DNA from: Candidatus Electrothrix yaqonensis
Lineage (GTDB): Bacteria; Desulfobacterota; Desulfobulbia; Desulfobulbales; Desulfobulbaceae
Assembly (NCBI GenBank): GCA_047651235.1
Contig: CP178758.1
Coordinates: forward strand, 1,020,001 to 1,052,000
Direction of reading: 5' to 3'
Length of the DNA: 32,000 nucleotides
A program made the translations under genes and the position numbers. Below the pieces are notes generated by a model. That model was not told the origin of the DNA. It saw only the letters and a list, made by a program, of their open reading frames with translations, and ran no database searches. Positions 29,150-32,000 of the stretch are shown one piece after another. The stretch's first letter is position 1; every line of letters starts with the position of its first letter.

Positions 29150-29515
29150 TTAATTATCCAGTTTTCCTTTGTTATACTTGACCGTAAGATTCAGCAGCAA
29201 GCTGTCATGTATCCCGAAATATTTTGCCTGCTTCAGGGCAATAGCAGGGGAACACTTCATTTTTCGCGCTACTTCTGCTATCATTCTGTCAAGTCTGCTT
29301 TTTGGAATCCCGGTTTTTTGGGCTACGTCATCCGGCGTCATGCCGAACGATTCTGTAAATTCCTTTTCCGGGATGTTGAAGGAACGGTTCGGAGGGGTCA
29401 GGGTCATCATTTTTGACAGTTCATCAGAGGTCATACCAAATGACTCTATGAACTTTTTTTCCGAAATACGGGGGAGACGTTTTCGTGATATTTTCCGTGC
29501 TGCCAGACGCGCCAT
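29150..29515 (-). CDS. HigA/VapI-like HTH (XRE-family) protein with an internally duplicated N-terminal segment
   Basis: The C-terminus GIPKSRLDRMIAE....SPAIALKQAKYFGIHDSLLLNLTVKYN resembles the HigA antidote HTH. The N-terminus contains ISEKKFIESFGMTSDEL and IPEKEFTESFGMTPDDV as a direct repeat. Confidence 0.55.
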   Translation of the reverse strand: MARLAARKISRKRLPRISEKKFIESFGMTSDELSKMMTLTPPNRSFNIPEKEFTESFGMTPDDVAQKTGIPKSRLDRMIAEVARKMKCSPAIALKQAKYFGIHDSLLLNLTVKYNKGKLDN

Positions 29516-30083: not shown

Positions 30084-30950
30084 ATGGGATGGGGAAGCTA
30101 TTCACTGGACAACCGTGCTGAACGGTCCAAAATCGAGGGATATACCACACGGTCTGTGCAGGAAATTTTTTCGCAGCAGGAAATGAACCGGGCCATGAGT
30201 CCGTATGGCGTCAAGGTACGCGAGGCACGGGACTCGGAGGAACATCCCAACTCAGTGGCCATTATTCTGGCCCTGGATGTCACCGGTTCAATGGGGTCTA
30301 TTCCCCATCATCTGGTCCGGGAAGGGCTGCCGAATATTATGGGCCGGATTATCCAGAGCGGCACCAGAGACCCGCAGCTTATGTTTCTCGCTATCGGTGA
30401 CCATGAGTACGACCGGAGCCCGTTGCAGGTCGGTCAGTTTGAATCCAGCGATGAGCTGCTGGATAAATGGCTGACCAATGTCTATCTGGAAGGCGGAGGC
30501 GGAGGTAATACCGGGGAGAGCTATCTGCTGGCCTGGTATTTTGCCGGATTTCATACCTCTATTGACTGCTTTGAAAAAAGAAAGCAGAAGGGGTTTCTTT
30601 TTACTGTCGGAGATGAACCGACCTTGCCGGACATTCCGGCCAAGAACCTGCAGCATCTTATGGGCGGAGGACAGCAGGTTGCCTGTCATGCTGCCACGCT
30701 GCTGGACAGGGCACGGGAGATGTATCACGTCTATCATCTGCATATCCGGCAGACCTATGCCGGAGGTATTCAGGAAACCATAGACGGATGGAAGCAGCTT
30801 ATGGGGGATCATCTGATTATCCTTGAACATCATGAGGAAGTCTCCAGGATTATTCCGGAGATTGTCGCTGAGGTCACCCATCGTGAATCCGGAAACGGGG
30901 ATTCCTCTGATTCCTCTTCGTCTTCGGAAGGGACAAAGATTATTCTCTGA
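30084..30950 (+). CDS. von Willebrand factor A (vWA) domain protein with complete MIDAS motif
   Basis: The D-x-T-x-S motif is in ILALDVTGSMG. The Thr is in GGGGGNTGESY and the Asp in LFTVGDEP. There is a 60-aa N-terminal extension and an acidic Ser-rich tail (GDSSDSSSSSEG). Confidence 0.8.
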   Translation: MGWGSYSLDNRAERSKIEGYTTRSVQEIFSQQEMNRAMSPYGVKVREARDSEEHPNSVAIILALDVTGSMGSIPHHLVREGLPNIMGRIIQSGTRDPQLMFLAIGDHEYDRSPLQVGQFESSDELLDKWLTNVYLEGGGGGNTGESYLLAWYFAGFHTSIDCFEKRKQKGFLFTVGDEPTLPDIPAKNLQHLMGGGQQVACHAATLLDRAREMYHVYHLHIRQTYAGGIQETIDGWKQLMGDHLIILEHHEEVSRIIPEIVAEVTHRESGNGDSSDSSSSSEGTKIIL

Positions 30951-31002: not shown

Positions 31003-32000
31003 ATGCATGGCATGGAAATAACAGCGCGCCATAAGATCGTTCTCGGAGCCGGGTTTGGTGATGAAGGCAAAGGAATGTTTACGGATTACCTGTGCCGAAA
31101 CGCTAAACGCCCTTTGGTTATCCGTTTTTCCGGGGGACAGCAGGCCGGGCATACAGTCGTGAGCGACGGTATCCGGCATGTTTTTTCCAATTTAGGTGCA
31201 GGTACCCTGCAGGGAGCACCGAGCTATTTTGCCCGATTCTGCACGATTGATCCGGTAGGGATTATCAACGAGCTTGAGGCGCTACGTGAAAAAGGAGTAG
31301 AACCGCTGCTCTACATTGACGCCGAATGTCCGGTCACAACGCCCTATGACATCCGCTACAATCAGCAGCATCACCCGCACGGGAGCTGCGGGGTCGGGGT
31401 CGGCGCAACCGTCAATCGGGAAGAGCATTTTTATTCGCTTACCTTTGCGGATCTGTTTTACCCGTGGGTCCTGGAAACCCGTCTTGAACTGCTGAAAAGG
31501 TTCTACAAAGGATATACAGATGTCGATCTGGAGGATTTTCTGGAATGCTGTGCTGTTCTTACCGGTTCCCCCTGGATTCGCAGAACCAGCGGACTGCCTG
31601 CCGATCCGCCTGATAGCCTGTACAGCGACTATATCTACGAAGGTTCCCAGGGCCTGCTGCTTGACCAGCATTACGGTTTTTTCCCCTATGTGACCCGTTC
31701 CGATACTGGAACAAAAAATGCTCTCTCCCTGTGCGGGGAGAACGAACCGGAAATATATCTGATCACCAGGGCGTATCAGACACGGCACGGCAAAGGGCCC
31801 ATGTCCAATGAAGAACTGCCGCACAATATCCGGCGAAATCCTCTGGAAACAAATACCTGCAACCGATTTCAGGGAGAGTTCCGGCGCACTCTGCTGGATC
31901 TTTCTCTGCTTGAATATGCCGTCAGCCGGGATACTCTGCTCCGTTCCTCATCGAAGAAGCATCTTGTTATCAACTGTTTGGATCATATTCGCGATGAATA
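31003..32000 (+). CDS. adenylosuccinate synthetase (PurA/PurZ superfamily)-like protein, divergent, 3'-partial (runs off window)
   Basis: I translated this manually, as it is not in the ORF track. The product starts MHGMEITARHKIVLGAGFGDEGKGMFTDYL (P-loop). It contains RFSGGQQAGHTV, GSCGVGVGATVNRE, YEGSQGLLLDQHYGFFPYVTRSDT and ITRAYQTRHGKGP. An RBS agggga lies upstream of ATG 31003, and an in-frame ATG also occurs at 31012. Confidence 0.8.
   Translation, partial: MHGMEITARHKIVLGAGFGDEGKGMFTDYLCRNAKRPLVIRFSGGQQAGHTVVSDGIRHVFSNLGAGTLQGAPSYFARFCTIDPVGIINELEALREKGVEPLLYIDAECPVTTPYDIRYNQQHHPHGSCGVGVGATVNREEHFYSLTFADLFYPWVLETRLELLKRFYKGYTDVDLEDFLECCAVLTGSPWIRRTSGLPADPPDSLYSDYIYEGSQGLLLDQHYGFFPYVTRSDTGTKNALSLCGENEPEIYLITRAYQTRHGKGPMSNEELPHNIRRNPLETNTCNRFQGEFRRTLLDLSLLEYAVSRDTLLRSSSKKHLVINCLDHIRDE

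Follow-up and report, generated by a model that had tools for sequence, protein, structure and literature searches.

The question raised by this locus is whether a gene whose homologues carry the database label adenylosuccinate synthase does in fact encode an enzyme making adenylosuccinate. The gene, called P in the following, lies at the right-hand end of a 32,000-nucleotide stretch of the genome of Candidatus Electrothrix yaqonensis (contig CP178758.1, positions 1,020,001 to 1,052,000; this whole stretch is referred to as the window) and forms the end of a module of three genes with the same orientation, S, V and P (Table 1). An earlier sequence-only reading of this DNA had proposed that P keeps the catalytic core of adenylosuccinate synthetase (PurA), has rewritten substrate loops and uses a substrate pair other than inosine 5'-monophosphate (IMP) plus aspartate. 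The comparison of P with characterized enzymes and the analysis of its gene neighborhood indicate that P probably makes a product other than adenylosuccinate.

The reading frame of P is free of stop codons from position 31003 to the end of the window, with an in-frame ATG at 31012 as alternative start. The full-length protein (P0001, 379 amino acids) is 100% identical to P across the 332 window codons; its 47 C-terminal residues fall outside the window, and the end of the gene is predicted about 142 nt beyond it. Pfam PF00709 (adenylosuccinate synthetase) matched P with an E-value of 7e-42 and, in a HMMER comparison with PDB chains, bacterial PurA came out on top (Thermus 1e-26, E. coli 1e-21). 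For an AlphaFold model 32 family sequences were used (predicted local distance difference test score, pLDDT, 86; predicted template modeling score 0.88). In a Foldseek search of the PDB, this model found bacterial PurA first (E 4e-21, TM 0.7), then archaeal PurA and after these PurZ/PurZ0 (E 1e-13). Because these matches exceed chance, P is a member of the adenylosuccinate synthetase fold.

Membership in one of the characterized families is another matter. The PurA equivalog models NF002223 and TIGR00184 gave 117 bits versus a cut-off of 402 and 101 bits versus 395.6, respectively, and the NCBIfam PurZ model NF038379 gave 49.7 bits versus a cut-off of 300. As all scores are far below the curated cut-offs and Asp13, which is Ser in phage PurZ and PurZ0, is kept, P is by its sequence a PF00709 superfamily member that is neither PurA nor PurZ. 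An enzyme of the PurZ/PurZ0 type would join dGMP and aspartate for the 2-aminoadenine precursor of a Z-genome, an idea that draws on P being a phage-associated PurA paralogue and on its match to PHROG 1211, which holds PurZ too (E 5e-53). We consider it highly improbable. The Ser that replaces Asp13 is found in 100% of phage PurZ/PurZ0 (PMC12884076), the PurZ motif TTVT..RR is absent from the aspartate loop of P, and the genes S, V and P are also found in bacterial chromosomes. Moreover, no DatZ, MazZ/DUF550, DpoZ or DutZ was seen in the window, the annotated phage loci or the clusters of open reading frames (ORFs), whole phage genomes not having been searched.

For the active site, P0001, its family and phage homologues were mapped by MAFFT and HMMER onto E. 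coli PurA (MG1655), whose residue numbers are used here unless residues of P are specified, with phiVC8 PurZ as second reference; conservation was counted over 263 family members. Residues Gly12-Asp13-Glu14-Gly15-Lys16-Gly17, His41, Gln224, Thr239, Arg272, Gly274 and Asp333 are kept in P. Within the family Asp13, Lys16, His41 and Gln224 are conserved in 99% of the members each, Thr239 and Arg272 in 98% and Asp333 in 97%. Changed in P are Asn38 to Gln, Thr128 to Ser, Thr129 to Cys, Arg131 to Val, Arg143 to Phe, Ser240 to Arg, Val273 to His, Lys331 to Cys and the entire aspartate loop. The replacing residues are conserved as well (Gln38 97%, Cys or Val at position 129 96%, His273 100%, Cys331 96%, Arg240 87%), and position 143 is occupied by His, Phe or Tyr.

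All motifs quoted in the sequence-only reading, namely GDEGKG, GGQQAGHTV, GSCGVGVGATV, the EG.QG block, TRHGKGP, NRFQGEFRR and NCLD, are present in P at the places given there, and both mappings confirmed each substitution at its four differing sites. A kept catalytic core beside rewritten substrate loops is what we find too, with the additions that the altered positions are kept in PurA, PurZ and PurZ0 and that the replacements are conserved across the family. In the guanine-specificity motif (S/T)KLD, which reads NCLD in P, only the Lys is lost; the guanine-specifying Asp333 is still there. Not part of that reading were the changes of Val273 and Ser240, the loss of the trans-subunit Arg143, the partner gene V with its von Willebrand factor type A (vWA) fold and the distribution mainly in phages.

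The meaning of these changes can be seen from the crystal contacts of Helicobacter pylori adenylosuccinate synthetase. In E. coli numbering, the IMP phosphate is bound by Asn38, Thr129, Thr239 and Arg143 of the other subunit, the ribose by the carbonyl group of Val273 and by Arg303, and an anion in the aspartate site is held by Arg303 and Arg305 (PMC11571797). For S-2L PurZ it was described that Arg303 touches O2' and the free aspartate and that a trans Arg pairs with the phosphate (PMC8342488). From the 5'-phosphate ligand set of PurA only Thr239 is identical in the P family.

Most altered is the aspartate site. The PurA loop G-x-T-T-G-R-x-R-R, comprising Thr300, Thr301, Arg303 and Arg305, is replaced in the P family by ETNxxNx(Y/F)QGxFR. 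The rebuilt loop is about three residues longer than that of PurA, lacks the Thr-Thr dyad and contains one near-invariant Arg (residue 294 of P); Glu282, Asn284, Gln290 and Gly291 of P are invariant in the family. While the sequence-only reading is borne out in that the loop around NRFQGEFRR is rebuilt, its pairing with the PurA loop is ambiguous: HMMER, a MAFFT alignment of nine sequences and a MAFFT alignment of 264 sequences produced three registers, and an hhalign profile comparison ends at residue 273 of P0001, just short of the loop. None of the three registers shows conservation of both the Thr-Thr dyad and Arg303. We prefer the register in which Arg294 would correspond to Arg305 and the variable residue 292 to Arg303, because of Gly and Thr anchors and a predicted strand at residues 293-297. 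The aspartate-using relatives examined all keep (S/T)T-G at positions 128-130 and TT..RR in the aspartate loop, the respective motifs being GTTGRG and GATTGRRRR in E. coli PurA, GSTGQG and ELTTVTKKVRRVF in phiVC8 PurZ, GSTRSG and EYTTVTKLPRRIF in S-2L PurZ, and GSTSKG and ERTTVTNKIRRVG in PurZ0.

Since the loop of P is rebuilt, has a single Arg where PurA has Arg303 and Arg305, and lacks the Thr-Thr dyad, the expectation that the amine is not aspartate appears well founded. A nucleotide other than an IMP-like 5'-monophosphate is less certain, because P still has the Asp13 and Gln224 that contact the base as well as the phosphate-binding Thr239, all of which would suit such a nucleotide. The earlier claim of a different substrate pair is consequently firmer for its amine half than for its nucleotide half.

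TABLE 1. Positions of the module genes, of motifs in V and P, of further features of the window and of transfer-messenger RNA (tmRNA) genes in viral loci. Positions refer to the window unless a locus is named; amino acid (aa) numbers are those of P.
Feature	Position	Strand	Remarks
S, predicted helical protein of 112 aa	29743-30081	+	First module gene; stop 2 nt ahead of V start
V, 288-aa protein, predicted vWA fold	30084-30950	+	AlphaFold/Foldseek, conserved motifs
V, N-terminus MG-x-G-x-Y-S	30084-30104
V, DVTGSMG	30276-30296		MIDAS-type motif
V, FTVGDEPT	30600-30623		MIDAS-type motif
V, hydrophobic C-terminus TKIIL	30933-30947		After Ser-rich linker
P, ORF of the PurA-like enzyme	31003-32000	+	332 of 379 codons inside the window
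P, P-loop GDEGKG (Gly12-Gly17), aa 19-24	31057-31074	+	Retained; includes catalytic base Asp13 and Lys16
P, GGQQAGHTV, aa 44-52	31132-31158	+	Catalytic His41 retained; Asn38 to Gln
P, GSCGVGVGATV, nucleotide 5'-phosphate loop, aa 127-137	31381-31413	+	Thr129 to Cys, Arg131 to Val
P, EGSQGLLLDQHYGFFPYVTRSDT (EGSQG...PYVTRSDT), aa 213-235	31639-31707	+	Gln224 and Thr239 retained; Ser240 to Arg, a new cis Arg
P, TRHGKGP, aa 260-266	31780-31800	+	Val273 to His, invariant in the family
P, ETNTCNRFQGEFRR, rebuilt loop replacing the PurA aspartate loop	31846-31887	+	NRFQGEFRR part is aa 287-295 (31861-31887)
P, NCLD, guanine-recognition motif, aa 324-327	31972-31983	+	Lys331 to Cys; Asp333 retained
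HigA-family antitoxin-like protein	29150-29515	-	TIGR02607, E 7e-8
ORF of 381 aa	27960-29105	-	Between M3 oligoendopeptidase and HigA-like gene
DDE_5 transposase ORF, truncated, 171 aa	24030-24545	-	Pfam E 4.5e-33, profile positions 31-151 of 272
tmRNA	L033:9114-9525		Rfam
tmRNA	L100:9472-9861		Rfam
tmRNA	L020:10780-11155		Rfam
tmRNA	L023:9192-9580		Rfam
tmRNA	L101:1624-1921		Rfam

The second line of evidence is the neighborhood of P. ORFs were called and clustered in 97 loci, and V is located immediately upstream of P in 92 of them. Four of the other five loci are cut by contig ends, and the fifth is a short contig from an uncultured Electrothrix metagenome-assembled genome (MAG; L019:1-3202). 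As the sole informative locus without V before P, this contig carries CobD/CbiB-like and 316-aa ORFs upstream of P, an arrangement that may reflect a rearrangement or a chimeric contig. Homologues of S precede V directly in 53 of the 97 loci, and in 25 loci this position is taken by another gene, J; the two are mutually exclusive. J has about 294 aa and comprises a kinase-like domain (PHROG 3043, "kinase") and an HPD motif that is invariant in 19 sequences. Its likeness to a J-domain is weak, with a Pfam DnaJ E-value of 0.0017, under the gathering score, and an hhalign E-value of 1e-3, to be taken as approximate, against the J-domain of E. coli DnaJ. The consensus of the kinase-like domain shows SHxG instead of HxD as catalytic-loop motif and the domain may for this reason be inactive. 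No match to S was found in Pfam, NCBIfam, PHROG or the PDB, where the profile search returned noise only (best hit prefoldin beta, E 2.5), and a homology of S and J was rejected (hhalign E 0.12). ORF clustering of the 97 loci revealed no fourth conserved gene of the module, the other neighbors being lineage-specific replication or RNA-repair genes.

For V itself Pfam gave no match. At least 7762 homologues were found, some of them named vWA by the source databases, and an AlphaFold model (pLDDT 69) matched integrin I-domains, complement factor B and collagen vWA in Foldseek (E about 1e-5, probability 1.0), so that V is, as judged from the model, a protein with vWA fold. The motifs DVTGS (DxTxS) and GDEP are invariant and would correspond to the first and the last element of a metal ion-dependent adhesion site (MIDAS); the middle Thr is without clear equivalent (GGGGGNxGES). 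At only about 35% identity, the relatives of V always start with MG-x-(G/S)-x-(Y/W)-S and end, after a disordered and often acidic linker, with two hydrophobic residues and a terminal Leu, and both features are common to both architectures.

In the Mycobacterium phage Sauce the V protein (gp259, L102:2610-4394) has 595 aa and contains an intein of 254 aa (Cys-Asn-Thr...Ser-Ser-Asn, then Cys). It sits exactly before the FIGDEKP or GDE(K/P)P motif, the counterpart of FTVGDEPT in the window. The same insertion of about 770 bp, annotated as HNH endonuclease, is found in V of Quasimodo and related phages. Inteins favor critical sites of important proteins, and the position of this one reads as marking a functionally critical site of V.

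The vWA partner suggests yet another role of P. Proteins with vWA domains typically pair with an adjacent P-loop NTPase, as in MoxR-vWA, CbbQO and NorQD, and the amine site of P is unrecognizable. P might have lost its ligase function and serve V as a GTP-dependent switch, kinase or pseudoenzyme in the manner of MoxR-type NTPases. We judge this to be quite unlikely, as Asp13, His41 and Gln224, needed only for a purine substrate and phosphoryl transfer, are conserved in nearly all family members and the strong conservation of the rebuilt loop with its four invariant residues argues for a specific ligand.

The gene order S-V-P also occurs in other Electrothrix genomes, Desulfamplus, a Methylococcaceae MAG, a Bacteroides MAG and phage-like metagenome contigs. 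Close relatives of P (65-82% identity) derive from Candidatus Electrothrix, Electronema and Desulfamplus, and a single-protein search of genome contigs with P yielded close relatives only. The Desulfamplus magnetovallimortis locus has an inserted PIN-domain toxin-antitoxin pair that separates V from P (L004:7180-7886) and is followed by HicB, BrxC/BrxD-like ATPases and a helicase of 2150 aa, which gives it the look of a defense island. In Ca. Electrothrix aarhusensis MCF a frameshift splits V into two ORFs (L012:7069-7922); this is probably an assembly error and not a pseudogene, because an intact V of 284 aa exists from the same species (P0134).

Large phages, among them cluster C mycobacteriophages and myophages of Rhizobium and Vibrio, make up most of the carriers. 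Among isolated phages V was found in 219 records and a PurA homologue in 238, in the same Mycobacterium, Rhizobium and Vibrio phages. About 200 cluster C mycobacteriophages carry both genes, as do 10 Rhizobium phages and six Vibrio phages, and every cluster C record found carries the P family. In Catera gp249, a Ser/Thr kinase, is followed by gp250 (V), gp251 and gp252 (P). Grouped at 50% identity, the matches of an exhaustive phmmer search formed 2806 clusters (E<=1e-30), and in IMG/VR a relative is encoded on at least 536 viral contigs, many of them 100-420 kb long. The V-less "phage" PurA matches in INPHARED were discarded as a contrast set, being tiny unannotated records that resemble bacterial purA.

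Some phage loci show further peculiarities around V. ORFs for homing endonucleases of the GIY-YIG type (about 245-300 aa, ORF cluster c14) repeatedly lie between V and P (L029, L036, L051, L075, L076, L084, L085 and L089). A protein of about 240-260 aa is encoded upstream of V in Vibrio phage Va1 (L006:5222-5935) and Rhizobium phage RHph_Y65 (L007:4777-5568); that of RHph_Y65 has a Met/Gly-rich C-terminal tail reminiscent of the GGM tails of chaperonins. Directly upstream of V, RHph_Y65 has a gene with a HIRAN domain (Pfam E 2.7e-7).

A survey published in 2026 counted 481 PF00709 homologues in NCBI viruses and presented a tree of 767 sequences, of which 251, including 246 prokaryotic ones, formed the PurA clade and another 151 the PurZ clade (PMC12884076). 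Subtraction from these counts leaves about 365 sequences in neither clade, of which about 330 are viral and which are not discussed there. We infer that the P family accounts for most of them. In the full-text literature searched, neither the P family nor its link to a vWA protein is described; only genome announcements mentioning a "PurA-like" gene and the survey were found. The idea of a dITP-related counter-defense as in Kongming was dropped, PurA being unmentioned in the Kongming paper.

Another explanation is that P is a true, divergent adenylosuccinate synthetase using IMP, aspartate and GTP, which phages would carry as an auxiliary metabolic gene that raises the AMP supply, with V a regulator or unrelated. 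The PurA fold, the kept catalytic residues, the preserved Thr239 and Gln224, the one Arg of the aspartate loop and the database name would all agree with it. What speaks against it, and makes it unlikely in our view, is that P reaches 117 and 101 bits where the PurA cut-offs are 402 and 395 and that Thr129, Arg143, Thr300/301 and Arg303, kept even in PurZ and PurZ0, are exchanged for other, conserved residues. In addition, a plain metabolic enzyme would need no obligate vWA neighbor, and the viral homologues left by subtraction lie outside the PurA clade of the published tree.

Outside the module the phage neighbors vary, with a recurrent flavor of translation and RNA repair. J-type loci contain HAD_SAK_2, R2K ATP-grasp, ligase and Thg1-like genes, and in cluster C phages a polynucleotide kinase gene is found three genes upstream. 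tRNA genes occur within the locus in 18 of 54 viral loci, and five diverse viral loci have an Rfam-confirmed tmRNA (RF00023 or the permuted RF04321) within about 0-4 kb of S-V-P (Table 1). The tmRNA of L033, which lies inside an array of about 30 tRNAs, begins 4 nt beyond the stop codon of P, and that of L100 begins 338 nt beyond it. Cluster C phages are known to encode tmRNA (PMC13014143).

This neighborhood, together with the finding that two of the four ligands of the mononucleotide 5'-phosphate are now non-bonding residues, would suit an enzyme acting on a purine base within RNA (tRNA, tmRNA) or DNA, in repair or modification among the translation-maintenance genes of phages. We regard such a substrate as unlikely. 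Many S-type loci lie amid replication genes without RNA genes, the bacterial copies have no such neighbors, and no domain for nucleic acid binding turned up in any of the three proteins S, V and P. The proximity could also reflect an accessory region of large phage genomes and, since it comes without base-rate control, it is a lead only.

Our favored explanation, to which we give an even chance, is that P is a GTP-dependent ligase that activates a 6-oxopurine nucleotide for coupling to some amine that is not free aspartate, with V as its partner. GTP would be bound via the P-loop and Asp333, and with the help of Asp13, His41 and Gln224 a purine nucleotide of the hypoxanthine type would receive the gamma-phosphate of GTP at its 6-oxo group. 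An amine which is not free L-aspartate would then displace the phosphate; it perhaps bears at most one carboxylate, because a single loop Arg survives. The 5'-phosphate cradle would be rewired and not deleted, in that the new cis Arg240 beside Thr239 could replace the lost trans Arg143. By analogy with other vWA proteins, V might act as an adaptor, by presenting or selecting the acceptor or by tethering P to a target, or might itself be the acceptor, and the small helical S or the J-domain/kinase-like J would serve as exchangeable third partner.

Several points weigh against this explanation. With the base contacts and some of the phosphate contacts preserved, P could still use IMP, and the surviving Arg of the aspartate loop would be compatible with a carboxylate-bearing amine, conceivably even aspartate bound in a new way. 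The alignment of this loop is ambiguous, and the AlphaFold model of P is unreliable over residues 217-234. The linkage of V and P speaks for functional coupling and does not specify the role of V, which could be a regulator. PADLOC, none of whose defense-system models matched S, V or P, gives no hint of an effector, and neither does Pfam.

The ligase may also be thought of without any free metabolite as product: having activated IMP by means of GTP, P would attach the purine nucleotide via N6 to an amine of a protein ("N6-purinylation"). This is suggested by the invariant MG N-terminus of V at such low overall identity, by the loss of Arg303, the ligand of the aspartate alpha-carboxylate, and by the strict linkage of V and P. 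Candidate acceptors are the conserved N-terminal Gly of V after removal of Met or a residue of a target recruited via the MIDAS, and large phages would perhaps direct the modification at the chaperone or translation machinery. We look upon this proposal as a long shot.

Outside the module the window is ordinary chromosome, with alaS, a fabF-like gene and genes for polysaccharide export, a lytic transglycosylase and an M3 peptidase. The GC content of the module is 0.519 versus 0.502 for the window, and a scan for promoters and terminators was uninformative. Because most carriers are phages, we infer that the chromosomal and compositionally ameliorated copy in the window was acquired by the cable bacterium.

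Divergent from the module lies a gene for a HigA-family antitoxin-like helix-turn-helix protein, whose N-terminal half contains an internal repeat (EKKFIESFGMTSDE / EKEFTESFGMTPDD); an obvious HigB partner ORF was not seen. The neighboring 381-aa ORF showed a weak match to a sulfotransferase domain (E 0.005, under the cut-off). A few kb upstream of the module, the DDE_5 ORF represents a remnant of an insertion sequence. Several Electrothrix loci (L002:9134-10756, L011-L015 and L017) have, just downstream of P, on the minus strand and thus convergent, a gene for a DnaJ-domain protein of 530-570 aa (Pfam DnaJ E 8e-12) with a SnoaL/DUF4440-like C-terminus; its position is beyond the end of the window. 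It may echo the partner J of the phage order J-V-P or may alternatively reflect synteny among close relatives. A phosphatidylserine decarboxylase gene was not counted as part of the module: it is present only in Electrothrix and one phage-like contig and was treated as synteny.

Which known systems, then, does the module resemble? The TerY-P triad reportedly consists of the vWA protein TerY, a Ser/Thr kinase and a PP2C phosphatase and occurs in conflict and stress contexts (described, it is said, by Anantharaman and colleagues in 2012). There, too, a vWA protein is fixed to a kinase-like partner, and in J-type and cluster C modules a kinase-like gene lies directly upstream of V. The phosphatase has no counterpart in the module, where the PurA-like enzyme takes its place.

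In MoxR-vWA, the Rubisco activase CbbQ-CbbO, NorQ-NorD and the Mg-chelatase pair BchI-BchD, the vWA domain binds an acidic residue of the target through its MIDAS and acts as adaptor. Like V and P, these are fixed pairs of a vWA protein with MIDAS-type motifs and a P-loop nucleotide-using enzyme. The NTPase of these pairs is an AAA+ ATPase, whereas P is a PurA-like ligase of the SIMIBI class, and V differs from the vWA partners in these pairs by an invariant N-terminus specific to its family and by a C-terminal tail that is hydrophobic.

With regard to the chemistry, CTP synthase and the agmatidine synthetase TiaS proceed by NTP-dependent O-phosphorylation of a lactam carbonyl followed by attack of an amine. 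They show that ammonia or a polyamine may serve as this amine and that the base may be part of a tRNA. Their chemical logic is that proposed for P, although the folds are unrelated or only distantly related.

PurA (EC 6.3.4.4; E. coli 1ADE/1CG0, H. pylori 6ZXQ, T. thermophilus 6JRQ) shares its fold with P and provides the best matches in sequence and structure. Since the P-loop, Asp13, Lys16, His41, Gln224, Thr239, Arg272 and Asp333 are common to both, the GTP-driven activation of the 6-oxopurine is probably the same. The differences are that the helical and C-terminal parts of P are about 50 aa shorter, that its aspartate loop is longer and that its vWA neighbor is obligate. From the rebuilt amine pocket and the obligate V one would expect a new purine-amine product, be it a small molecule or an adduct on a macromolecule, and the comparison suggests that the annotation "adenylosuccinate synthase" is wrong for the P family. 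Settling the function of P would correct thousands of annotations, and N6-purinylation, if true, would be a protein-nucleotide conjugation of a previously unknown kind.

The closest precedent for a phage PurA paralogue with changed specificity is given by PurZ and PurZ0, the succino-2-amino-deoxyadenylate synthetases of Z-genomes (6FM1, 7ODX, 7VF6), which are, like P, shorter than bacterial PurA. P is structurally nearer to bacterial PurA than to PurZ, and Z-cluster genes were not seen at the loci inspected. PurZ demonstrates that a phage PurA paralogue with one changed specificity can rewrite DNA chemistry, and the P family, with its roughly 2800 clusters, is at least as abundant. The two have departed from PurA in opposite directions: in PurZ the nucleotide was changed to dGMP with the exchange of Asp13 for Ser, while aspartate and the TTVT..RR loop were kept, whereas in P Asp13 is kept and the amine loop is rebuilt.

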